Part shown: positions 22,780 through 63,823 of the stretch, piece after piece
Layout of the letters: the number at the start of each line of letters is the position of its first letter
How positions within the stretch are numbered: the stretch's first letter is position 1
Source of the DNA: Escherichia phage SKA64
Direction: 5' to 3' (one strand)
Length of the DNA stretch: 64,000 nucleotides
Sequence record: OM362897.1
Notes under the pieces: model-generated
The model's database searches: none
What the model saw: the letters and a program-made list of their open reading frames with translations, nothing else
Told to the model about the DNA's origin: nothing
Translations under genes and position numbers: made by a program

Positions 22780-25020
22780 TTGATTCGTTTTGTAACTAAA
22801 TCTAACGGTAAGACAGAGGAGTTTAATCCAGAAAAACTTCGCAAGTGGTCTGAATTTGCAGCAGGTAAACTAAACTGGTCTGAAATTGAATTAGAAGCTG
22901 TGAAGCGGTGTTATGACGGTGTGTCTACGCGTGATCTGCATAAAGCAATGATTGCAGCGTGTATTGACAAGAAAACACAAGCTTACAGTGATATGGCAGG
23001 AAGACTTCTTCTGGGTATGATTTACAAACAGGCTCATGGGGGATACCACAGTATCCCTTCACTGAATACCTTTTATCATGATATGGTAGAACGTGGACAT
23101 TGGGCTAAAATGGATTATACTGATGAAGAGATCAAAGAAATAGGTAAGATTGTAAAGCATAATAAAAATCTAACTTATGGTTATTCTGTTTTACGTCAGA
23201 TGGTAGATAAATATCTTATTCGAGATGCAGTAAACGATGTGGTGCATGAGTCTCCACAGTTTCTTTTCATTGGTATCGCAATGAAGGTTATGGAGATCCA
23301 ACCAAAAGAACGCCGTATAGAAGATATTAAAAAACTTTATACTTATGTTAGCGATCTTAAGATTAATCTGCCATCGCCGTATCTGACAACTCTACGAACT
23401 CCAATCAAAGGAAGTGCGTCTTGTTGTTTATTCCGTGCAGACGATACGGCAGAATCTTTAGCCATTGCTAATTACTTAGCTCATGAGTATACGTTGAATA
23501 ACGCAGGTATTGGTGTTAATCTTCAAACTCGTGCCACAGGTCAAGGTGTTAAGAATAATCGTATTATTCATGGTGGTCTTCTTCCGTATCTGAAATGGAT
23601 GGAAGATAGTGTTGGAGCTTCGAAGCAAGCAAGCCGTGGAGGTAGTGCTACAGTTACCTTTACCATACTTGAACCAGACTTCGACGATCTGATTCGACTG
23701 AAGAATCCAACAACACCTATAGATAAACGAGTAGACAAACTGGATTATTCTATTGTTGTTAACCGTTCGTTCTTGCGTCGAGCAGCAAAAAACGAAGATT
23801 GGATGTTAGTTAGTTGTGATGATGCTCCTGAACTTTATGAAGCTTTGTATAAAAGTGAAGAAGAGTTTGATGCAGTTTATGACAAAGTAAGCCGTCGTCG
23901 CATTAAGAAAAAATTTGTTAAGGCTCGTGATCTTCTGACAGAGATTATTGTTCAACGTGCAGAAACAGGACGTATTTACATGTTCTTTGCTGACAACGTT
24001 AACAACCATACACCTTTCCTGGATACGGTGTATCAATCAAACCTGTGTCAAGAGATCTTCTTACCAACTAAAGCTTTCCACAGTATGCCGGATCTCTTTA
24101 CTGGTGAGAATACAGAAGATCAAGAATTGGCTTTATGCTTCTTATCTTCTATTGTTGCTGGTCGTGTCTTACCTGAAGAATATGAGGATGTTGCATATTA
24201 CACTGTATTGACAATTGACAACGTTATTGAAACAATGGATTATCCATTTAAACATAACGAAATAACTGCTAAAGCACGTAGATCTATTGGTGTAGGCATT
24301 ACAAACTTAGCGCATTACTTGGCAAGTAATTTTGTAAATTATTCAGATGCTTATGCTAAAAAATTAATGCATGAACTTGCAGAACGTCATTACTTTTGGT
24401 TGGCAAAAGCCTCTCTGCGTCTGGCTAAGGAAAAAGGTAATGCGGAATGGATCGATAAGACCAAATGGCCTCAAGGTTGGCTACCAATTGACACTTATGC
24501 TAAAACAGTAGATAGTATCGGTAATTTTGATCTTAAAATGGATTGGGAAGGCTTACGTGCTGAAATCATTGAACAAGGTGGTATCCGTAACAGTGTCTTG
24601 GCTGCTATTGCACCTAATGAGTCCAGCAGTTTGGTAAGCAATACTACTAACTCTCTGTATCCTGTTCGTGATACTATTATGTATAAACAAAGTCAGAAAG
24701 GTAGTGTATTATTTATTGTCCCAGACTACGAAAAACTGAAGATGTTTTACCAGTCTGCCTGGGATACTCCGGCTAAAGATCTTGCAGAAATGTATGGTAT
24801 CTTTACCAAGTTTACGGACCAAGGGATTTCTTGTGATTCTTGGCTAGATTATTCTAAATTGGTAGGGGGACGTTTATCAGTTAAAGAAGAGATGAAATTT
24901 ATTTTGAACTTTGCTAGACTGGGTGGTAAGTCATTGTATTACCTTAATAGTAGAACAAAATCAGCAGATTCTTTAGCACAAGAAGATTCTGATGGTGGTT
25001 GTGAAGCTTGCAAGATGTGA
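22780..25020 (+). CDS. nrdA: ribonucleotide reductase class Ia alpha subunit
   Basis: 746 aa. N-terminal ATP-cone-like region, catalytic SNLCQEIFLP, C-terminal Cys pair CEAC. TTG start after gggaggag. Confidence 0.85.
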   Translation: MIRFVTKSNGKTEEFNPEKLRKWSEFAAGKLNWSEIELEAVKRCYDGVSTRDLHKAMIAACIDKKTQAYSDMAGRLLLGMIYKQAHGGYHSIPSLNTFYHDMVERGHWAKMDYTDEEIKEIGKIVKHNKNLTYGYSVLRQMVDKYLIRDAVNDVVHESPQFLFIGIAMKVMEIQPKERRIEDIKKLYTYVSDLKINLPSPYLTTLRTPIKGSASCCLFRADDTAESLAIANYLAHEYTLNNAGIGVNLQTRATGQGVKNNRIIHGGLLPYLKWMEDSVGASKQASRGGSATVTFTILEPDFDDLIRLKNPTTPIDKRVDKLDYSIVVNRSFLRRAAKNEDWMLVSCDDAPELYEALYKSEEEFDAVYDKVSRRRIKKKFVKARDLLTEIIVQRAETGRIYMFFADNVNNHTPFLDTVYQSNLCQEIFLPTKAFHSMPDLFTGENTEDQELALCFLSSIVAGRVLPEEYEDVAYYTVLTIDNVIETMDYPFKHNEITAKARRSIGVGITNLAHYLASNFVNYSDAYAKKLMHELAERHYFWLAKASLRLAKEKGNAEWIDKTKWPQGWLPIDTYAKTVDSIGNFDLKMDWEGLRAEIIEQGGIRNSVLAAIAPNESSSLVSNTTNSLYPVRDTIMYKQSQKGSVLFIVPDYEKLKMFYQSAWDTPAKDLAEMYGIFTKFTDQGISCDSWLDYSKLVGGRLSVKEEMKFILNFARLGGKSLYYLNSRTKSADSLAQEDSDGGCEACKM

Positions 25021-25028
25021 TGAAACTA

Positions 25029-25050
25029 GGGGCTTCGGCCCCTTTTTATT
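25029..25050 (+). terminator. rho-independent terminator
   Basis: GGGGC-TTCG-GCCCC followed by TTTTT. Confidence 0.6.
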
Positions 25051-25064
25051 GAGGAGAATTTTAA

Positions 25065-26150
25065 ATGGCAGCAATTAATTTACACAATGAAGTTTACAAA
25101 ACAGGAAAATATCCAGTATTTTTGGGGGAGCAATTAGGGATCTTTGATTCTGTTAACGTAACTTATCCAGAAATGCACAAACTCTACAAACTTCAAAAAG
25201 CACAAGATTGGGATGAAAACGAAGTTAATCTGGATCAGACACGTAAAGATTTCGTAGCTTGTTCTAAAAACAACTATGATGTTATGATTAAAAACTTATC
25301 GTTCCAATGGGAAAATGATTCTCTTGCAAAATCAATCATCACTTTGTTCTCTCCATTCTTGAGTAACAATGAAGCCTGTGCTATGATGATGAAGCAGAGT
25401 GAAATGGAAGTTCTCCATGCGTTAACGTATTCTGAAATAATCCGCCAATGTACTCCAGATCCAATTGAAGTCATCAATCAGATTATGGTTAATGATAAAA
25501 TTTTCAATCGTATGGGTATCATTGCTGATATCATGGGTCAGTTGGAAGAAGCTGGTCATAAGTATGCTCTAGGATTGATTGAAGCTAACGATGAACTTCG
25601 ATTGCTGATTCTTAAAGGGATGGTAGCCCTGATTGGATTAGAAGGTATTCAGTTTATATCTTCCTTCTCTGCTACTTTTGCTATGGCAGAACAACAACTG
25701 TTTGTTGGGGCTTGTAAACTGATCCAGAAAATTATGCTAGATGAAATCTTGCATGTTAAGATGGATTATGCTGTAATTGATGCATTGATGCATGACCCAA
25801 TTTGGCGTAAAATTTACGAAGACAATATTGAAGAGTTGACTTTGATCCTCGACACTGTTGTTGAACAAGAGGAACAGTGGTGTGACTACCTGTTTAGTGA
25901 AGGTCGTTTTATTGTAGGTCTTAACGCCGAATTGTCTAAACAGTGGGTTTATTTCAATGCTGCTCCTATTTATCGTCGATTGAAAATGAAAGCCAAGTTT
26001 AAAGCACCTAAACATAGTCCTTTAGCTTGGATGGAAAAATGGTTGAATCCTGATTTGATTCAGTCAGCAGCCCAAGAGATTCAGTTAACTAATTACAAAT
26101 TGAATTCAGCTAACAAAGATCTCTCTGATGATGAGGAGCTTGACTTCTAA
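25065..26150 (+). CDS. nrdB: ribonucleotide reductase beta subunit
   Basis: 361 aa. Iron-ligand region EMEVLHALTYSE and acidic C-terminal tail DDEELDF. Confidence 0.8.
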   Translation: MAAINLHNEVYKTGKYPVFLGEQLGIFDSVNVTYPEMHKLYKLQKAQDWDENEVNLDQTRKDFVACSKNNYDVMIKNLSFQWENDSLAKSIITLFSPFLSNNEACAMMMKQSEMEVLHALTYSEIIRQCTPDPIEVINQIMVNDKIFNRMGIIADIMGQLEEAGHKYALGLIEANDELRLLILKGMVALIGLEGIQFISSFSATFAMAEQQLFVGACKLIQKIMLDEILHVKMDYAVIDALMHDPIWRKIYEDNIEELTLILDTVVEQEEQWCDYLFSEGRFIVGLNAELSKQWVYFNAAPIYRRLKMKAKFKAPKHSPLAWMEKWLNPDLIQSAAQEIQLTNYKLNSANKDLSDDEELDF

Positions 26151-26654
26151 TGATTTTGAGATGTGTTGGTATAATCGACACATTCAAAGACGTTTTTGAT
26201 AAAGGGGCTTCTTATGAAGCCTCCGAAATGAAGAATGGTTTTTGTGATGTATTCGGTAAACGCCTGAAGAAAAACGGCGATCCTTGGCTAGGAGTTATGT
26301 CTTGTGGTCATATTATTGTAAATGGTGTTGCCAAGTTTGAAATAATTAAGGAGGAATAATGGCTGAAAAACTTATTTTTTGTCCTGTGTGCGGTGGGACT
26401 GGACAGATGGAAGTGGAAATTATGGTAACATTTCCTTGCCTGAATTGTCATGGTGAAGGACGAGTAGTAATCTTTGAAAAAGAAGGGTTGGAGGTAGAAG
26501 ATGGAGAGTGAAAAAGAGTATGTTCGCATTCCACGAGAATTAACAGATCACATTGCAGAAGCAATAGCTTTCGAAGCTAGATGTTGTGGAGGCATTGCTT
26601 ACGATATTTATGAAGCAATTATTAAAGCTGCTCAAGAAGAGGAGGAGATGAAAA

Positions 26655-26981
26655 ATGGGTATTGATATCGAATGGCGTATGTTACAGGGTGCACCTTTTA
26701 ATAAGTGGGAAGAGGCTGTAGGAGAAGATCCTAGAATTGAAGAAGAATTTGACGGAGATTTTAACTGGTTCTTACAAGAAGGTCTTGACTTAAGCCGCAT
26801 CTCTCCTTTCTACGATGCGGATGAGTCTTATTGCATATATGGCCTTGATTTAGAAGGCGGAGAAGGAAGCATAGCTGTAGATCTTGAGCAATTGAATGAG
26901 AATGCAAAAGAAGCCTATGCAAAGCTACTTGAAAAATATAACATTAAAACGGAAACTATTATTTCTCAACATGTTTGGTAA
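26655..26981 (+). CDS. hypothetical acidic protein
   Basis: 108-aa ORF just upstream of the rfb block. Confidence 0.35.
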   Translation: MGIDIEWRMLQGAPFNKWEEAVGEDPRIEEEFDGDFNWFLQEGLDLSRISPFYDADESYCIYGLDLEGGEGSIAVDLEQLNENAKEAYAKLLEKYNIKTETIISQHVW

Positions 26982-26990
26982 GGAGAACTG

Positions 26991-27983
26991 ATGCGCTATC
27001 TGGTAACAGGTGGTCTTGGTTTTATTGGGAGTGCCGTGGTGCGCTCTCTTTGTCAAGATCCCAATAACGAAGTTTTTGTCGTTGATAAGATGGGCTATGC
27101 AGCAGACATTGAGAATGTAGGCGATATCACTCACGTTAAACTAAGCATAACAGATTTGGCAAACGAAACCCAGGTCAAAAGTTTAGTAGTAGAGTGCAAT
27201 CCTGACTTCATCATTCACTTAGCGGCAGAAAGTCATGTGGATAATTCTATCAAGAATCCACGAGTTTTCATCGACTCCAATATTATTGGTACATACAATT
27301 TATTGGAAGCTGCAAGGCTCCTCCCAAAAAATAAACTGAAGATGTTCGTACACGTCTCCACAGACGAAGTGTACGGCGATATGGCAGACTCTGGCGTTCC
27401 CTTTACTGAAGAGACAGCTTATGCCCCTTCAAGCCCGTACAGCGCGTCTAAGGCAGCATCTGACCATCTTGTGAAAGCTTGGCACCGTACCTACGATTTG
27501 CCTGTTGTGATAACCAACTGCTCCAATAACTTTGGGCCTTATCAACATCCAGAAAAGCTGATCCCAAAAATCATCACAAGTATCTTGACGAATAAAGAGA
27601 TTCCGGTGTATGGTAAAGGCGATCAGGTGCGAGACTGGCTTTTTGTTGAGGATCATGCGCGAGCTATTCTTCAAGTGGCAACAGGTGGAGAACCAGGTCA
27701 AACGTATAATGTTGGAACACGTAATCCCAAAACCAATATGGAGATCATCTATATGGTTTGTGACTACATGGATGCTGTACATCCAGAGGCAGGAACCTAC
27801 CCTTCTTCCAACTTGATAACTTTTGTTGAAGATCGTAAAGGACATGACTTGCGTTATGAAATCAATCCTTCTAAAATAGAGTCTGAACTGGGTTGGAGTG
27901 CAAACTCTACATTTGAACAAGATCTCTACTCAACGATTGAATGGTACTTAAACAACCCTCAATGGTGGAGTGAGAAAATTTAA
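26991..27983 (+). CDS. rfbB: dTDP-glucose 4,6-dehydratase
   Basis: N-terminal [15 protein letters not shown] Rossmann motif; length and overall pattern as in RmlB. Confidence 0.85.
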
Positions 27984-27991
27984 GGAGGGTT

Positions 27992-28870
27992 ATGAAAGGT
28001 ATTATTTTGGCGGGAGGAAGTGGAACCCGCCTTCATCCAGTAACACGCAGTGTGAGCAAGCAATTACTCCCTGTGTATGACAAACCCATGATCTACTACC
28101 CTTTATCGGTATTGATGTTGGCTGACATTAAGGATATTTTAATAATCACCACACCAGGCGATCAGGAAGACTTTGAGTATCTTCTCGGAGATGGATCTAT
28201 GTTTGGGATAAAACTCACTTACGCAATCCAATCTGAGCCACGAGGTCTTGCTGACGCTTTCATCATCGGTAAAGATTTTATCGGAGAAGACTCTGTTGCT
28301 CTTATTTTAGGTGACAACCTATTCTTCGGACAAAGCTTTGGTAAACTACTGATTAACGCTAGTGAGATGGTAGATGTTTGGGGTGGAGCTTGTATCTTCG
28401 GGTATTTGGTGAAAGATCCTGAACGATTCGGTGTGGTTGAATTTGGGAGTAATCGTCAAGCTATTTCTATTGAAGAGAAACCTGAAAATCCTAAATCAGA
28501 TTATGCTGTCACAGGTTTGTATTTCTATGATAACTCTGTTATTCAACGTGCATTAGAAGTAACCCCTTCCGCGCGTGGAGAACTGGAGATCACTGATATC
28601 AATCGCAGCTACCTAGAAGACAGCAAGTTACAAGTGGAAGTTCTCGGACGAGGATTTACTTGGCTTGACACAGGAACACACGCCAGTCTGATGGAAGCTG
28701 GTCAATTCGTGCAGACTATTGAGAACCGTCAAGGATTGAAGATTGCGTGCCTGGAAGAAATTGCTTTCAAAAAAGGGTGGATTTCTTTAGAGACTTTGGT
28801 GTATCATGGAAACTCACTGAAGAAAACAGAGTACGGGCAATACCTACTCAAATTAGCGGAGAGAAAATGA
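27992..28870 (+). CDS. rfbA: glucose-1-phosphate thymidylyltransferase
   Basis: [18 protein letters not shown]...[16 protein letters not shown], a classic RmlA N-terminus. Confidence 0.85.
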
Positions 28871-29433
28871 AAGTAGAAAAAACAAAAATTGAAGGTGCGG
28901 TAATTATCGAACCAGACGTTTATAAAGATGATCGTGGTTTCTTTCTAGAAACATATAATGAACAAAAATACGAAGATATTATTGGTAGACAAACTTTCGT
29001 TCAAGATAACATGTCTAAATCAAACTTCGGTGTTTTGCGAGGAATGCACTTTCAAACAAATAACCCGCAAGGTAAGCTTGTTCGTTGTGTAAGTGGGGAA
29101 GTATTGGATTTCGCTGTAGATTTACGTAAAGATAGTCCAACTTACGGTGCTTGGGACGGTGTTGTTCTTCGTGCACGACACCATACGCAGTTTTGGCTTC
29201 CACCTGGTTTGGCACATGGTTTTATAGTTTTGAGTATGGATGCTATCTTTGAATACAAATGCACAACTCCATACGACCCTTCTAGTGAACAAAGTTTACG
29301 TTGGGATGATCCTGATATAGGGATCGATTGGGGCTTCGATATGATTTTTGATGAAGGTTTTAAACCTATTCTATCAACAAAAGATGCAATGGCTAAATCT
29401 TTTCAACAGTTACGTAGCGAGGGTGTATGCTAA
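28867..29433 (+). CDS. rfbC: dTDP-4-dehydrorhamnose 3,5-epimerase
   Basis: Cupin-type RmlC pattern. ATG at 28867 overlaps the rfbA stop (ATGA). The track ORF extends further upstream in the same frame. Confidence 0.8.
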
Positions 29434-30269
29434 CATATCTGGTATTGGGCGGTAATGGACAACTGGGACAAGCTTTACGTAAAGTGGCTCCTTCAAATGT
29501 ATCTTTAATTTATCCTAAAGAACGTGTAGATATTACAAATTTTGAAGCTGTGCGAAACGCTATTATTGAAGATTATGTAGATGGTGTTATTAATTGCGCC
29601 GCTTATACGGCTGTAGATAAAGCAGAACATGATTTTGCTACTGCTTTGGCTGTTAATGCGTATGGACCTGCAAATATTGCGGCAGTGTGCAGCAAACTTA
29701 AAATTGATTTTGTGCATATTTCTACAGACTATATTTTTAATTATTCTCATCCTATTTTTGAAGATACTACACCTAACCCAATAAACAATTATGGGTATAC
29801 GAAAGAACTTGGTGAAAAAATGGTGCGAGGAGTTAACCCAAATGCATATATTATTCGAACAGCCTCGGTATATAGCGAATTTGGAAATAACTTTCTAAAA
29901 ACCATGTTGTCTCGCTATAATGATGGACAACGTGATTTTATTATTGTTGCTGATCAGTTCTCTTGTCCAACATATGCTCCAGATTTAGCAGAAGCTATTT
30001 TTGAAGTATTAAAAACAGGTTGGTCAAGGTCTGTTAAGACTTACCATTTTGCAGGAAGCCATCTTATTTCTTGGGCGGAGTTTGCGGAAAAGATCTTGAC
30101 ACAGATGCCAGAACCTGTTAAGATATCGGCGGTATCAGCTTCAACCTATAATGCTCCAGCAGCACGTCCGGTGAAGTCACAACTAGTAACCAGTCACTAT
30201 CTTACAAAATCAGATTTAAATAAAGGTATTGAACAGTCTTTAGCAGTATTACTTAATAAGGAGAGGTAA
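29427..30269 (+). CDS. rfbD: dTDP-4-dehydrorhamnose reductase
   Basis: LVLGGNGQLGQAL N-terminus, about 280 aa. Completes the four-enzyme pathway. Confidence 0.75.
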   Translation: MLTYLVLGGNGQLGQALRKVAPSNVSLIYPKERVDITNFEAVRNAIIEDYVDGVINCAAYTAVDKAEHDFATALAVNAYGPANIAAVCSKLKIDFVHISTDYIFNYSHPIFEDTTPNPINNYGYTKELGEKMVRGVNPNAYIIRTASVYSEFGNNFLKTMLSRYNDGQRDFIIVADQFSCPTYAPDLAEAIFEVLKTGWSRSVKTYHFAGSHLISWAEFAEKILTQMPEPVKISAVSASTYNAPAARPVKSQLVTSHYLTKSDLNKGIEQSLAVLLNKER

Positions 30270-30529
30270 TGGAATTTGTAATTTTTGGTAAACCTAACTG
30301 TCAATTTTGTGAAATGTCAAAACAACTATTAACCATGCGCAATAAACAGTTTGAATATTTAAGTCTTGATCAAGACTATGATTTAGAATCAATGACTAAA
30401 ACAGTTGTTGATCTTACCGGAGTTCCTCCACGCACATTTCCACAAATTCTGTCCGAAGTGAACGGGGAGGTAACATACGTAGGCGGTTTTACCGAACTGC
30501 GTGATCTCATGGCTCAAATTGCGGAGTAA
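30269..30529 (+). CDS. glutaredoxin/NrdC-like redoxin
   Basis: CQFC active site, and VGGFTELRDL resembling the T4 NrdC C-terminus. Confidence 0.65.
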   Translation: MEFVIFGKPNCQFCEMSKQLLTMRNKQFEYLSLDQDYDLESMTKTVVDLTGVPPRTFPQILSEVNGEVTYVGGFTELRDLMAQIAE

Positions 30530-30691: not shown

Positions 30692-31192
30692 ATGGCTAAA
30701 GTAGTAGATGAGTTCGATATGCTACGAGTCGATGAAGGACTGAAGCTTACTGTTTATCAAGACCATCTTGGTTATTGGACAGTCGGCATAGGACACCTTC
30801 TGACTAAAATAAAAGATAAAGCAAAGGCTATTCAAATCTTAGATAATCTTCTTGGTCGTAAGACTAATGGAGTTATCACAGAAAAAGAAGCCCGTCAAAT
30901 CTTTGCTGACGATGTTGCAAAAGTGAAGAGAGACATAAAAAACAGTGCTATCTTATCACCAATCTATGATAAGGTTAGTGATACTCGTAAATTGGGAATA
31001 ATCAACATGGTTTTCCAGTTGGGGTTAAAAGGTGCTGAAGGGTTTCAAAATAGCTTGACTTTAATCAGCAATGCATATTATACTCAAGCAGGTAAAAACA
31101 TGCGTAAAAGCCGATGGTATAGCCAGACGCCAAACCGTGCTGAACGAGTAATTAAAGTTCTGACTTCTGGAACTTTAGATGCTTACAACTAA
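30692..31192 (+). CDS. e: T4-type lysozyme (GH24 endolysin)
   Basis: FDMLRVDEGLKLTVYQDHLGYWTVGIGHLLTK closely matches the T4 lysozyme N-terminus. Confidence 0.85.
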   Translation: MAKVVDEFDMLRVDEGLKLTVYQDHLGYWTVGIGHLLTKIKDKAKAIQILDNLLGRKTNGVITEKEARQIFADDVAKVKRDIKNSAILSPIYDKVSDTRKLGIINMVFQLGLKGAEGFQNSLTLISNAYYTQAGKNMRKSRWYSQTPNRAERVIKVLTSGTLDAYN

Positions 31193-31229
31193 TAAAGGGG
31201 CTTCGGCCCCTTCTAAAAGGAGTGCTACT

Positions 31230-32020: not shown

Positions 32021-32524
32021 TTGATGGGTGTAGCAACAATAGCTATCGGAAGAAGCGGTATAGATGAGTGCTATCAAACGGGACTCGTAAAACCTAACGA
32101 ATTTCGTCAAATTTGTGTAAACCATATTGAAAAAGAGATTGCTCTTACTTTAGAGAATATGACCCTCCGAGATAAGCTGGAAATGTTTAAATGTTGGTGT
32201 CTAGGAGAAGATTGGCTTTTAAACCATTTTCAAGAACTTTCTGATAGTAAAGAAAGCTTGTTTGATTGTATAATAGGAATAGCTGGCTCCGATCCTAGCC
32301 TTCTGCACATAACAGAAGAAGAGGCGAAGTTACTGTTCTTAAGTAATTTGTTTAATAAGAAAGCACTGCTTGTTCGTGATTGCAGTGATCTTCTTAATAA
32401 CCCGCTCGCAACGTCTGATCAAATTTTTGTTGACAAAGAGACACTACGTGCGATAGAATACATCTGCAAATATGTGAATGGCGGGAAAGCGGTTCTTAAA
32501 ACATTAACAGAGGAGGAAGAATAG
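32021..32524 (+). CDS. hypothetical protein
   Basis: 167-aa ORF immediately upstream of the HslV-like gene. Confidence 0.35.
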   Translation: MMGVATIAIGRSGIDECYQTGLVKPNEFRQICVNHIEKEIALTLENMTLRDKLEMFKCWCLGEDWLLNHFQELSDSKESLFDCIIGIAGSDPSLLHITEEEAKLLFLSNLFNKKALLVRDCSDLLNNPLATSDQIFVDKETLRAIEYICKYVNGGKAVLKTLTEEEE

Positions 32525-33216
32525 TGACGACAATTATTGCAACCAAAAATAAGATTTTGAGTGACGGTAAGGTAACTTTTGGTGGACGTGTAGATTCTAT
32601 TAATTTCAAAAAGGTCCGAAAAATTGGAGATTACCTTGTAGGTGGTGCTGGTCGTCTGACCTCCGTGCTTTCTTTCTTTCAATGGTTTGAACAAAATCTA
32701 CAGTGCGAAGCAGCACGTGATGCTGTCCCTGGTTTGATGATTCACTCTGATCCAGACAAAGAAGATGAAGAGTTTATTGCACTTGTTGTTCATCCAGACG
32801 GACGTATTTTCCTGCACGAGGGTAACAACCCAACACGTGCATATCCGATTGATGAAGAATATTATGCAGTAGGGAGTGGGTCAGACTTTGCTTTAGCTGC
32901 TCTTGATGCAGGGGCAACACCAGAACAGGCTATGGAAGTAGCTAAAAAGCGAGATGCTTTTTCTGGTGGTGAAACATTTATTGAAGAACAAGACGAGATT
33001 ATTGAATTAACAGACGATGATTTAGAAAACTTCTCCAAAGAAGAATTGATCAATCTTTTGAAATTCGGTAATCCCTACGGTGAAGAAGAACCTCGTAACG
33101 TGGCAGGTAACGAGGCGGATACTGAAGAAAAATCTGTTGCAGAAAACAACTTGACTTCTAAATCTGAAAATATTAATCTCGTAAATGTGGCGGATTTCGA
33201 AGGAACCGCTATTTAA
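32524..33216 (+). CDS. HslV-like proteasome-type peptidase (Ntn hydrolase) with acidic C-terminal extension
   Basis: MTTIIATKN... with Thr at position 2, FKKVRK, GGAG, AVGSGSDFALAA align with E. coli HslV as recalled. GTG start. Confidence 0.6.
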   Translation: MTTIIATKNKILSDGKVTFGGRVDSINFKKVRKIGDYLVGGAGRLTSVLSFFQWFEQNLQCEAARDAVPGLMIHSDPDKEDEEFIALVVHPDGRIFLHEGNNPTRAYPIDEEYYAVGSGSDFALAALDAGATPEQAMEVAKKRDAFSGGETFIEEQDEIIELTDDDLENFSKEELINLLKFGNPYGEEEPRNVAGNEADTEEKSVAENNLTSKSENINLVNVADFEGTAI

Positions 33217-33261
33217 CAAACTGCCCCTTCGGGGGCATTTCTTAAACATAGGAGATTAATA

Positions 33262-63538: not shown

Positions 63539-63823
63539 TTAGCGGTTTACGTAAGCTTTACCGTTTACGGTCATCGGTATGGCTTCAAGGTCTGGATCTT
63601 CCTTAAGGTCGCGTGCAAGCTCACCGCACCGGACACCCTCGAATCCGTGGTATTCTGTTTCCCCGTCCTTAAAAGTTTTAGCGGCAAGGCATAGGCGATA
63701 ATTAACACCGATCCGGTTTACTGCGTTGATATCGGTTAACGTGATCGATTCCGGCAAATCGTTAGCCATGACAGGCGCGTTAATACCAACAACCAGGGCA
63801 ACTACTGCGATCATCTTTTTCAT
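63539..63823 (-). CDS. hypothetical secreted protein with signal peptide
   Basis: MKKMIAVVALVVGINAPVMA N-terminus, 94 aa. Confidence 0.4.
   Translation of the reverse strand: MKKMIAVVALVVGINAPVMANDLPESITLTDINAVNRIGVNYRLCLAAKTFKDGETEYHGFEGVRCGELARDLKEDPDLEAIPMTVNGKAYVNR

Follow-up and report, generated by a model that had tools for sequence, protein, structure and literature searches.

The 64,000-nucleotide window analyzed here, the whole stretch of DNA from Escherichia phage SKA64 (OM362897.1), carries four intact plus-strand open reading frames in a row at 26991-30269, as a first-pass annotation had reported. They are rmlB (rfbB, 26991..27983), encoding a dTDP-glucose 4,6-dehydratase of 330 aa; rmlA (rfbA, 27992..28870), encoding a glucose-1-phosphate thymidylyltransferase of 292 aa; rmlC (rfbC, 28867..29433), which overlaps the rmlA stop by 4 nt and encodes a dTDP-4-dehydrorhamnose 3,5-epimerase of 188 aa; and rmlD (rfbD, 29427..30269), which overlaps rmlC by 7 nt, encodes a dTDP-4-dehydrorhamnose reductase of 280 aa, and ends in a stop codon that overlaps the start of the glutaredoxin gene. 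The clear family signatures attributed to all four genes held up, with each product scoring above its curated NCBIfam equivalog cut-off and Pfam in agreement. RmlB scored 430 bits against a cut-off of 365 (TIGR01181), RmlA 469 against 361 (TIGR01207), RmlC 225 against 156 (TIGR01221), and RmlD 238 against 224 (TIGR01214), the last a narrow margin. The RmlB translation contains STDEVYG and YSASK, the TDE and YxxxK catalytic motifs of extended SDR 4,6-dehydratases, and residues 8-14 of RmlA (GGSGTRL) form the nucleotide-binding motif GGxGTRL. RmlC is a cupin-fold 3,5-epimerase equivalog by both TIGR01221 and alignment of its residues 3-178 to the Salmonella RmlC structure 1dzr (E 1e-56), including the RGxHFQ, GKLVRC, and YK segments, while RmlD matched the RmlD structure 3sc6 (E 7e-44) with STDYIF and YGYTK, which hold its STDY and YxxxK motifs, aligned.

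With four of four enzymes intact, the phage appears to encode a complete and functional pathway to dTDP-L-rhamnose, as first proposed. RmlA would convert glucose-1-phosphate and dTTP to dTDP-glucose, which RmlB would convert to dTDP-4-keto-6-deoxyglucose; 3,5-epimerization of this intermediate by RmlC and reduction of the product by RmlD would then yield dTDP-beta-L-rhamnose. The genes are under purifying selection, with pN/pS values, from only 3-4 genomes, of 0.076 for rmlB, 0.069 for rmlA, 0.033 for rmlC, and 0.23 for rmlD.

The rml genes lie downstream of nrdAB (22780-26150), from which they are separated by four small plus-strand ORFs (69, 50, 54, and 108 aa; 26150..26981). Only the 50-aa ORF had any match, a sub-threshold one of the CxxC zinc-ribbon or DnaJ-like type. 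The glutaredoxin gene (grx, 30269..30529, plus strand; PF00462, 38 bits) follows rmlD, as annotated, and its product is probably the reductant partner of NrdAB. It marks the downstream boundary of the rml insertion: in Klebsiella phage FBKp34, grx directly follows nrdB, and in PVP-SE1 the two are gp139 (nrdB) and gp141 (grx), according to notes in the phi92 record. The small ORFs are thus part of the material separating nrdB from grx. A T4-type lysozyme gene (30692-31192; PF00959, 43 bits) comes next, after a short gap in which relatives have a 49-aa ORF. It had been called the endolysin; the lysozyme is there, but its standing as the sole endolysin is uncertain because phAPEC8 annotates a second, gp067, elsewhere. 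A GC-rich hairpin with a T-run after nrdA (25028..25043, plus strand) is the last terminator-like site upstream of rml, and the next hairpin of comparable strength occurs only at 31194-31213. Since no comparably strong hairpin intervenes, nrdB, the small ORFs, rmlBACD, grx, and the lysozyme gene plausibly form one transcription unit, and the rml pathway would be expressed together with the nucleotide-metabolism genes nrdAB and grx.

The window belongs to the genus Phapecoctavirus and shares 99% identity with the Escherichia phages EP57, tuntematon, and phAPEC8. The whole block shares 98-99% nucleotide identity with phAPEC8 (gp166-gp169), tuntematon, EP57, and ESCO5, with the gene order unchanged, nrdB and the small ORFs again preceding it, and grx and the lysozyme gene following it, and there is essentially no difference between the phAPEC8 operon and that of the window, which represents another isolate of this species group. 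Although put forward as noteworthy, the operon is therefore a known one: its four enzymes are already annotated in phAPEC8, other Phapecoctavirus phages, and phi92, in dozens of GenBank records, and the pathway has been discussed as 'peculiar' (Olsen et al. 2020; PMC7552041). The cassette is kept in one slot in Phapecoctavirus, Justusliebigvirus (phi92), Citrobacter phage Tr1, and Klebsiella phage KP13-26, with rmlCD conserved across genera at 54-62% identity. The phi92 genes (gp067-gp064) have the same order, slot, and accompanying glycosyltransferase cluster as those of the window's group, but their products are only 54-71% identical to those of the window, while the upstream NrdA and NrdB are 84-87% identical. 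Bacterial rmlBACD or rfb clusters for O-antigen and LPS (e.g., in Pseudomonas, Marinomonas, and Dickeya) share the four enzyme families, and 14 of 80 sampled loci have the B-A-C-D order of the phage. Their products are only 47-53% (RmlB), 62-69% (RmlA), 47-56% (RmlC), and 30-40% (RmlD) identical to those of the window. Unlike these clusters, the phage cassette has no adjoining glycosyltransferase, flippase, or polymerase gene, and it is embedded in a nucleotide-metabolism operon.

The block had also been described as visibly more GC-rich than its surroundings, suggesting a bacterial donor. With a GC content of 0.404, in a window of 0.386 overall, the block is equaled or exceeded by 9% of segments of the same size. 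GC is raised only in rmlB (0.428) and rmlA (0.424), which rank 6th and 8th among 94 ORFs (z ~1.5), while rmlC (0.379) and rmlD (0.368) are average or lower, with GC3 values (0.25 and 0.22) among the lowest in the window. Identities to phi92 are 71% for RmlA, 63% for RmlB, 62% for RmlC, and 54% for RmlD. The best bacterial identities, taken from the best 80 loci of a GTDB scan seeded with RmlA and hence from a biased sample, are 60-69%, at most 53%, at most 56%, and at most 41%, respectively, such that in this sample all four proteins are closer to phi92 than to any bacterial match. Given the weak GC excess and these closer phage proteins, a recent bacterial donor is not borne out. In phiWec179, from a divergent Phapecoctavirus lineage, RmlB and RmlA are 95-97% identical to those of the window (RmlB 95%, compared to 63% in phi92), while RmlC and RmlD are only 64-66% identical. 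GC3 of rmlBA is 0.38-0.40 in the window versus 0.22-0.23 in phi92, and the small GC rise fits the codon composition of phiWec179. Because phiWec179 shares both this composition and the high identity confined to RmlBA, the rise points to exchange between phage lineages rather than to a bacterial donor.

Natural variants also divide the locus into two parts. All 70 Phapecoctavirus records contain rmlCD and 47 contain rmlBA; in the phAPEC8 clade, ~23 of 64 records (about a third) show a clean loss of rmlBA, with rmlA removed together with rmlB and rmlCD kept intact. The same loss with retention of rmlCD was reported for ESCO37 (PMC10269720). The left breakpoint (26976..26990, plus strand; TAAGGAGAACTG) covers the stop of the upstream ORF and the rmlB Shine-Dalgarno sequence, and the right breakpoint (28853..28866, plus strand) lies in the rmlC Shine-Dalgarno region within the 3' end of rmlA. 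The deletion joins at Shine-Dalgarno microhomology, GGAGA: the window reads GGTAAGGAGA followed by ACTGATG at the left breakpoint and GCGGAGAG followed by AAAATG before rmlC, and phage anhysbys reads GGTAAGGAGAGAAAATG at the junction, where the upstream ORF is followed 9 nt on by the rmlC start. Among 5426 complete E. coli genomes, every one contains rfbB/rfbA- or rffG/rffH-like DNA, and 2605 (about half) contain rfbD/rfbC-like DNA. This modular loss pattern and the host gene frequencies are new points of this analysis. We conclude that rmlBA is the accessory, exchangeable half of the locus and rmlCD its retained core. RmlBA would be an optional booster because RffG/RffH-type enzymes in every E. 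coli could supply the intermediate, whereas rmlCD would be indispensable because only about half of the strains have rmlD and rmlC. The pathway would thereby free the phage from its host's ability to make rhamnose, which predicts that rmlCD matters only on E. coli strains without rfbC/rfbD.

The statement that no glycosyltransferase was recognized is true of the window but misleading for the genome as a whole, because relatives carry four such genes ~70 kb away. Every close relative has this four-gene cluster ~70 kb from rml, which falls outside the window. In phAPEC8 it comprises gp071-gp074, adjoining the primase and polymerase (PolA) genes, where gp071 and gp072 are two small proteins and gp073 and gp074 are GT-B/GT4-like paralogues. 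All four matched PHROG glycosyltransferase families (E 1e-79 to 1e-149), and gp071 is a predicted glycosyltransferase from such family matches only. Structure models place gp072 confidently in the GT-A fold, with a resemblance to protein O-glycosyltransferases such as pp-GalNAc-T, and gp073 in a GT-B/GT4-like fold (pLDDT 94), with best matches that include lipid-linked or glycolipid GT4 enzymes (PglA-type, PimA/PimB, WaaG, and WbnH); these searches indicate fold class, not donor or acceptor specificity. Hydrophobic or transmembrane segments were absent from gp070-gp075 of phAPEC8, and gp071-gp074 are thus soluble phage-encoded glycosyltransferases, as in the Che8-type system discussed below.

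The cluster occurs in the same 70 Phapecoctavirus records as rmlCD, and in 127 Stephanstirmvirinae records at at least 80% coverage. The whole FBKp34 genome contains no rml genes, gp071, or gp072, and retains gp073 only as an N-terminally truncated remnant. In KP13-26, rmlCD occurs alongside gp071 and gp073, a combination that now defines a minimal core, and metagenomic relatives have a 4,6-dehydratase-like SDR gene within the glycosyltransferase module. The link between the rml pathway and this cluster, and their joint absence from FBKp34, are new here and give the earlier puzzle a defined partner gene set, gp071-gp074. Because the co-distribution is largely that of one lineage, with one clear correlated loss (FBKp34), it should be interpreted with caution as independent evidence. 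Rhamnosyl transfer by a retaining mechanism, the usual one for GT4-type enzymes, would be atypical, and this counts against use of dTDP-rhamnose by gp073 and gp074. Nevertheless, we infer that the phage glycosyltransferases use dTDP-rhamnose.

Three roles had been proposed for the pathway: glycosylation of virion proteins, modification of host surface polysaccharide, and sugar modification of DNA. By gene context, the first is the best supported. We propose that a functional, phage-maintained rml pathway feeds dTDP-rhamnose to the soluble glycosyltransferases gp071-gp074, with a virion protein as the most plausible acceptor, a reading to which we assign a probability of about one half. The acceptors would probably be virion components, which would be coated with a rhamnose-containing glycan in the manner of Che8-type mycobacteriophages. 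In a P. alliivorans prophage, the gp071/072/073 module immediately follows the major capsid gene, and in IMG/VR contigs and prophages of P. silvicola and Serratia it just precedes the genes for terminase, portal, and capsid. That temperate phages keep the module next to capsid or terminase genes is a new observation. Residues 26-155 of gp072 also showed weak homology (25-28% identity, E down to 5e-7) to glycosyltransferases of ~339 Mycobacterium phage records; the homologue in phage Wee, of cluster F, is gp104, the large enzyme of a glycosyltransferase cassette, gp104-gp108. A passage of PMC11256854 citing Freeman 2023 reports that the capsids of cluster F mycobacteriophages (Che8) are glycosylated. 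Both systems use soluble phage glycosyltransferases, but the mycobacteriophage cassette lacks its own sugar-nucleotide pathway, whereas rml genes are present here, and a capsid glycan is reported for Che8 but only predicted for Stephanstirmvirinae. Several observations count against a rhamnosylated virion. Ser/Thr-rich tails of the mycobacteriophage type were absent from the phAPEC8 capsid, decoration, tail-tube, and sheath proteins, the temperate phages have no rml genes within 10 kb of the module, and in the large myoviruses both modules lie among DNA-metabolism rather than structural genes. The P. alliivorans capsid protein adjoining the module ends in SSSTT.

An unlikely but better surviving alternative is that the glycosyltransferases remodel the host envelope, building or capping an undecaprenyl- or LPS-linked rhamnose glycan during infection and thereby blocking superinfection, keeping progeny from adsorbing to debris, or sequestering the lipid carrier. 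Bacteria use rml genes for O-antigen and LPS synthesis, the fold matches of gp073 include the lipid-linked enzymes named above, and RmlC and RmlD would, from established pathway knowledge, divert the ECA precursor dTDP-4-keto-6-deoxyglucose. The many tail fibers of these phages recognize surface glycans (PMC8594841). Yet phAPEC8 has no annotated initiating phosphoglycosyltransferase, flippase, polymerase, ligase, or Gtr-type component, and gp070-gp075 include none of the membrane-embedded proteins typical of Gtr, Oac, or Wzy systems. In temperate phages the module sits within capsid and terminase clusters, not at moron or immunity positions. The window's group consists of virulent phages, which have little time to renew an envelope.

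We consider it improbable that the target is a non-virion one, such as a host protein or small molecule modified for takeover or anti-defense, or that the genes manipulate dTDP-sugar and dTTP pools without a dedicated acceptor. The rml genes do lie among early or middle genes beside nucleotide metabolism, gp072 resembles pp-GalNAc-T-type protein O-glycosyltransferases, and a Burkholderia gp073 homologue adjoins an intimin/invasin-like adhesin, indicating that the family can associate with non-virion proteins. However, no candidate target was identified and the capsid-adjacent context is less well explained, while pure pool manipulation accounts for neither the retention of rmlCD upon rmlBA loss nor the joint loss of rml and glycosyltransferase genes in FBKp34.

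Sugar hypermodification of DNA, in which phage glycosyltransferases place dTDP-rhamnose on a modified base to evade host nucleases (hypothesized by Olsen et al. 2020), is the least supported of the three earlier roles and less probable still. The rml genes sit within a nucleotide-metabolism block (thyX, nrdAB, and grx), the glycosyltransferase cluster adjoins primase and PolA, and the phage encodes a MazG-like pyrophosphohydrolase, an NT5C nucleotidase, and a divergent ThyX. Two sub-threshold matches of gp072 point the same way, a short one to Pfam TAGT (19.5 bits versus a cut-off of 27.5) and one over only 39 aa to the PHROG beta-glucosyl-HMC alpha-glucosyltransferase (E 8e-6). An analogy to T4 DNA glucosylation, in which alpha-gt and beta-gt act on 5-hydroxymethylcytosine, has been proposed (PMC7552041), and the GT-B enzymes and nucleotide-metabolism context are alike. 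Unlike T4, no hydroxymethylase or dCTPase is evident, and in fold gp073 matches generic GT4 enzymes at least as well as it does T4 glucosyltransferases. No ThyA-type dCMP/dUMP hydroxymethylase or TET/JBP is annotated in the complete phAPEC8 record or appeared in a few Pfam scans, the thymidylate synthase being ThyX (PF02511, 33 bits). Notes in that record describe ThyX, MazG, and NT5C as common to rV5 and PVP-SE1 and give no such similarity for the rml and glycosyltransferase genes; the phage also encodes Dam- and Dcm-type methyltransferases, which act on ordinary bases, and the temperate phages carry the glycosyltransferase module in head-gene clusters. Moreover, Vequintavirinae and phi92-like relatives, phi92-like phages that carry both modules among them, are described as 'exceptionally susceptible' to restriction-modification despite their 'putative dTDP glycosylation machinery' (PMC8594841); EmilieFrey has both modules and PaulScherrer has rmlCD. 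Because these relatives are restriction-sensitive, a virion protein is favored over DNA as the acceptor.

That the rml genes are dispensable passengers that contribute nothing to the phage life cycle is very improbable: roughly one in three records of the clade lacks rmlBA, FBKp34 has neither rml nor an intact glycosyltransferase module, and the laboratory host K-12 has its own rml genes, but the low pN/pS (0.03-0.23, 3-4 genomes), the presence of rmlCD in 70 of 70 Phapecoctavirus records and across genera, and the tight overlaps with all frames intact argue against it.

Extending the virion-protein reading, we tentatively suggest that Stephanstirmvirinae (the phAPEC8 and phi92 groups) put an all-phage-made rhamnose glycan on their virions using RmlCD, with or without RmlBA, and gp071-gp074, and that gp071/072/073 is a widespread, unrecognized virion-glycosylation cassette in temperate phages of Pseudomonas, Serratia, and other proteobacteria. 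If so, phages of Gram-negative bacteria would have their first example of a self-sufficient system for virion glycosylation. A related case is the self-encoded glycosylation of chlorovirus PBCV-1 and mimivirus, which includes rhamnose synthesis and the capsid glycosyltransferase A64R; these are eukaryotic giant viruses that use UDP-rhamnose chemistry, and they share no sequence homology with the phage system beyond a common fold. Therapeutic cocktails include phAPEC8- and phi92-like phages, whose host ranges are very broad. Virion self-glycosylation in these phages would alter their stability and pharmacokinetics as well as their immune recognition by antibodies, effects that have been reported for mycobacteriophages. 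Natural knock-outs are available in the strains without rmlBA and in FBKp34, which has neither rml genes nor an intact glycosyltransferase module.

The four consecutive + strand ORFs at 26991-30269 that the first-pass annotation had read as a dTDP-L-rhamnose block were called accurately. All are intact, and each scored above the curated equivalog cut-off of its matching NCBIfam model, with rmlB (26991-27983) reaching 430 bits on TIGR01181 (cut-off 365), rmlA (27992-28870) 469 bits on TIGR01207 (361), rmlC (28867-29433) 225 bits on TIGR01221 (156), and rmlD (29427-30269) 238 bits on TIGR01214 (224). Pfam assignments were consistent, and the translations carry the motifs STDE and YSASK (RmlB), GGSGTRL (RmlA), and STDYIF and YGYTK (RmlD). 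RmlC could be aligned from end to end with the Salmonella RmlC structure (1dzr), and RmlD aligned with the solved Bacillus anthracis RmlD (3sc6). The genes overlap by 4 nt (rmlA/rmlC) and 7 nt (rmlC/rmlD), and the rmlD stop overlaps the start of a glutaredoxin gene (grx, 30269-30529), while thyX, nrdA (22780-25020), nrdB (25065-26150), and four small ORFs lie upstream. In a consensus scan, strong GC-rich hairpins occurred only at 25028-25043, following nrdA, and at 31194-31213, following the T4-type lysozyme gene downstream of grx, positions from which we infer that the rml genes probably share one transcription unit with nrdB and grx.

The rml block is 98-99% identical to approximately 45 complete Phapecoctavirus genomes, including EP57, tuntematon, nieznany, phAPEC8, and ESCO5, whose records already annotate the four genes under the same names. 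Olsen et al. 2020 (PMC7552041) termed the pathway 'peculiar' and proposed that hydroxymethylated bases are rhamnosylated; the observation of the operon is therefore not new. The same authors stated that the pathway is complete in all phapecoctaviruses, contrary to our finding that two of their five phapecoctavirus isolates, anhysbys and nepoznato, lack the complete pathway. Our literature search found no paper that explains what the phage rml pathway does. Added here are a two-module structure of the locus, an explanation of that structure from host gene content, its connection to one defined glycosyltransferase module, and the testable hypothesis that virions are glycosylated.

The first-pass annotation also described the block as visibly more GC-rich than its surroundings and took this to indicate a bacterial donor, neither of which was borne out. 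GC content of the block was 0.404 compared to 0.386 for the window, with 9% of equal-length windows at least as GC-rich. Raised values were confined to rmlB (0.428) and rmlA (0.424; z ~1.5), while rmlC and rmlD had average GC and ranked 86th and 91st of 94 ORFs in GC3 (0.25 and 0.22, both very low). A compositional or codon anomaly of the whole block was thus rejected, since the elevation in rmlBA is slight and third codon positions of rmlCD are rich in A and T. The most GC-rich ORF of the window, at 63539-63823 on the - strand (0.484, z = 3.6), is a far stronger outlier than the rml genes.

Potential donors were sought with an RmlA-seeded scan of one genome per GTDB species, which returned 80 loci and is biased towards those sharing exact 8-mers with the RmlA query. 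The best bacterial RmlA matches in these loci were 60-69% identical and scattered over many phyla. Gene order B-A-C-D was found in 14 loci, all from gamma- or beta-proteobacteria, with identities of 47-53% (B), 62-69% (A), 47-56% (C), and 30-40% (D). No locus exceeded 69% for RmlA or 41% for RmlD, so no recent bacterial donor can be named. In contrast, the Rml proteins of phi92, a Justusliebigvirus with all four genes, were closer to those of the window (B 63, A 71, C 62, D 54%), and in this biased sample the closest relatives of phage Rml proteins are other phage Rml proteins.

Comparison of phage records revealed that the locus behaves as two halves. Megablast detected rmlCD in 70 phage records, with full-length matches at ≥95% identity in 64 of them, and rmlBA in only 47 (41 at ≥95%, and six of a divergent phiWec type). 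Approximately 23 of the 64 phAPEC8-clade records have lost rmlB and rmlA with rmlC and rmlD intact, as in anhysbys, nepoznato, Mt1B1_P17, ZCKP1, ESCO37, ETEC-TG, and SF1-1; ESCO37 has been reported likewise (PMC10269720). The Klebsiella phage KP13-26 also carries rmlCD only, in an unchanged slot. The window reads GGTAAGGAGA followed by ACTGATG before rmlB, and GCGGAGAG followed by AAAATG before rmlC, while the anhysbys junction reads GGTAAGGAGAGAAAATG, so that the two Shine-Dalgarno sequences are cleanly fused. The deletion ends map to 26976-26990 and 28853-28866 of the window and to 2300-2350 of the anhysbys locus (L006), with GGAGA microhomology. In these genomes, recombination between the two Shine-Dalgarno regions has removed rmlBA precisely, leaving rmlC correctly spaced after the upstream ORF.

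The enterobacterial common antigen pathway, through RffH and RffG, yields dTDP-4-keto-6-deoxyglucose, the substrate of RmlC. DNA resembling rfbB/rfbA or rffG/rffH was found in all 5426 of 5426 complete E. coli genomes, whereas rfbD/rfbC-like DNA was detected in at least 2605 (48%, a lower bound at blastn sensitivity). A broad-host-range phage needing dTDP-L-rhamnose could therefore count on every host for the first two steps, but could not count on every host for the last two. This fit between loss pattern and host genes argues that selection acts on the end product, rather than on an intermediate or through a pool effect.

The rmlBA half has also moved between phage lineages. Between the window and the divergent Phapecoctavirus phiWec179, amino-acid identity is 95% for RmlB and 97% for RmlA but only 64% for RmlC and 66% for RmlD, with 89% for NrdB and 86% for PhoH in the flanks (rmlBA compared between window 26991-28870 and phiWec179 locus L100, 2567-4446). 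Synonymous difference was lower in rmlB (0.46) and rmlA (0.38) than in nrdB (0.74) and phoH (0.79). GC3 of the window's rmlBA (0.40 and 0.38) resembled that of phiWec179 genes in this region (0.34-0.46), unlike that of its own neighbours (0.22-0.34). By these sequence comparisons, the locus is a mosaic, and the slight GC rise of rmlBA reflects this exchange among phages.

The earlier remark that no glycosyltransferase could be recognized holds for the 64-kb window, which contains no homologue of phAPEC8 gp071-gp074, but not for the genome as a whole. The phAPEC8 RefSeq record annotates these four genes consecutively as glycosyltransferases at 109.6-112.8 kb, approximately 70 kb from the rml genes, with an endolysin gene on one side and primase/helicase on the other. 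Pfam support was marginal (gp074 scored 25.2 bits on Glyco_trans_1_2, cut-off 25), while the PHROG families were unambiguous. Many gp073 homologues pass PF13524 or PF13692, and the predicted gp073 structure (pLDDT 94) has a GT-B/GT4-like fold. Direct matching of gp071, gp072, and gp073 sequences to solved structures gave nothing useful. The assignment of gp071 as a putative glycosyltransferase is based on its PHROG hits, on a D-x-D motif that is conserved, and on its homology to such an enzyme from a Cellulophaga phage.

At 97-100% nucleotide identity, the cluster occurs in the same 70 Phapecoctavirus records as rmlCD, and at the protein level (≥80% coverage) in 127 Stephanstirmvirinae records, phi92 group included. 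Because this co-distribution mostly reflects a single lineage, it is not strong alone. Three further observations add weight to the suggestion that the rml genes work together with the gp071/gp072/gp073 module. First, rml homologues are missing throughout the complete genome of another member of Stephanstirmvirinae, the Klebsiella phage FBKp34, in which grx comes directly after nrdB; gp071 and gp072 are absent as well, and gp073 persists only as an N-terminally truncated remnant. Second, KP13-26 retains a minimal set of rmlCD, gp070, gp071, one gp073-type gene, and gp075. Third, metagenomic relatives of these myoviruses carry a 4,6-dehydratase-like SDR gene between their gp071 and gp072 homologues (L089, 2667-3737; L099, 4400-5464; L113, 8622-9683). 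Its product is approximately 30% identical to RmlB and scored 171 bits on TIGR01181, below the cut-off, which may point to another 6-deoxy-sugar donor in these relatives. Within 10 kb of the module, IMG/VR contigs contained no rml genes, only this dehydratase-like gene in three related contigs.

The triad, or a pair from it, is a mobile module in temperate prophages of Pseudomonas and Serratia (L097, 5863-8942; L091, 9357-10960; L092, 5589-7670), where it directly adjoins capsid or terminase genes. In a Pseudomonas alliivorans prophage, gp071/072/073 homologues in the same order directly follow the major capsid gene, upstream of head-tail and tail genes, and the adjacent capsid protein ends in ...TSSSTT. 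In a P. silvicola prophage and related IMG/VR contigs, a gp072/gp073 pair immediately precedes the terminase, portal, and capsid genes, and the triad lies between the lysis cassette and terminase in a Serratia prophage. In Burkholderia dolosa (L098, 3025-8440), a 411-aa gp073 homologue adjoins, downstream, an intimin/invasin-type inverse autotransporter adhesin and a 571-aa Ig-like-rich protein, an arrangement that suggests adhesin glycosylation outside a phage context. In addition, gp072 is homologous to a glycosyltransferase of approximately 339 Mycobacterium phage records (25-28% identity, E down to 5e-7), the match in phage Wee falling in a terminal glycosyltransferase cassette. For cluster F phages such as Che8, glycans on capsid proteins are reported (PMC11256854, citing Freeman et al. 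2023). Together, the capsid and terminase contexts and the mycobacteriophage homology favor a protein as the acceptor, probably one of the virion. Two observations speak against this reading: phAPEC8 head, decoration, tube, and sheath proteins showed no Ser/Thr-rich acceptor tails, with FBKp34, which is without the glycosyltransferases, as comparison, and in large myoviruses both rml genes and module sit among replication and nucleotide genes. Virion glycosylation by the rml pathway and module is put forward as a hypothesis.

It is possible that the phage glycosyltransferases instead remodel the host envelope, as lipid-linked enzymes are among the GT4 neighbours of the predicted fold; however, no membrane or export components are annotated, and gp070-gp075 have no transmembrane segments. 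For rhamnosylation of phage DNA, support is limited to the genomic position of the genes and to short matches of gp072, all below threshold, to families of DNA glycosyltransferases. It is contradicted by the finding of Maffei et al. 2021 (PMC8594841) that phi92-like phages, for which they mention a 'putative dTDP glycosylation machinery', are exceptionally sensitive to restriction-modification systems despite it; in that sensitive set, EmilieFrey carries both modules and PaulScherrer carries rmlCD. Moreover, the phAPEC8 record annotates no hydroxymethylase or TET gene, and the phage encodes Dam- and Dcm-type methyltransferases. That the rml genes are mere passengers is contradicted by their conservation and by purifying selection on all four within the genus, where pN/pS from only 3-4 genomes was 0.076 (rmlB), 0.069 (rmlA), 0.033 (rmlC), and 0.23 (rmlD), compared to 0.026 for both nrdA and nrdB.

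Several other features of the window were recorded. The gene called an endolysin by the first-pass annotation does encode a T4-type lysozyme (30692-31192), but this may not be the lysis enzyme, since phAPEC8 has a second annotated endolysin, gp067 (similar to those of PVP-SE1 and rV5), adjoining the glycosyltransferase cluster, and a homologue of the window lysozyme is named 'baseplate hub + tail lysozyme' in one RefSeq record. Gene blocks are separated by GC-rich hairpins of near-identical sequence (GGGGC-TTCG-GCCCC type), at 25028-25043 behind nrdA, at 31194-31213 behind the lysozyme gene, and at 33222-33237 behind an HslV-like gene; these are likely terminators or RNA-processing sites punctuating a long + strand operon. 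The HslV/proteasome beta-subunit-like protein (32524-33216; 230 aa; PF00227, 25.6 bits) bears an acidic extension at its C terminus, and the protein is conserved in KP13-26 and in phi92, where it is named 'putative 20S proteasome'. A 50-aa ORF at 26359-26511 with two CxxC pairs matched the DnaJ CXXCXGXG zinc-finger and Anti-TRAP families below threshold; in the phi92 record, a small ORF of the matching region (gp070) is labelled 'putative DnaJ chaperone'. Ten tRNA genes (Met x2, Ile, Pro, Gln, Gly, Thr, Asn, Ser, Arg) lie on the - strand at 3579-5501, equivalent to the annotated phAPEC8 tRNA block. Lastly, E. coli Phapecoctavirus or Justusliebigvirus genomes are matched at 97-98% identity by records under the names Campylobacter phage (B15, A145, and C3), Acinetobacter phage (vB_AbaM_ABPW7), and Dompiswa phage (TSP7_1); probably these host labels are mistaken, or contaminating enterobacteria were the source of the phages.
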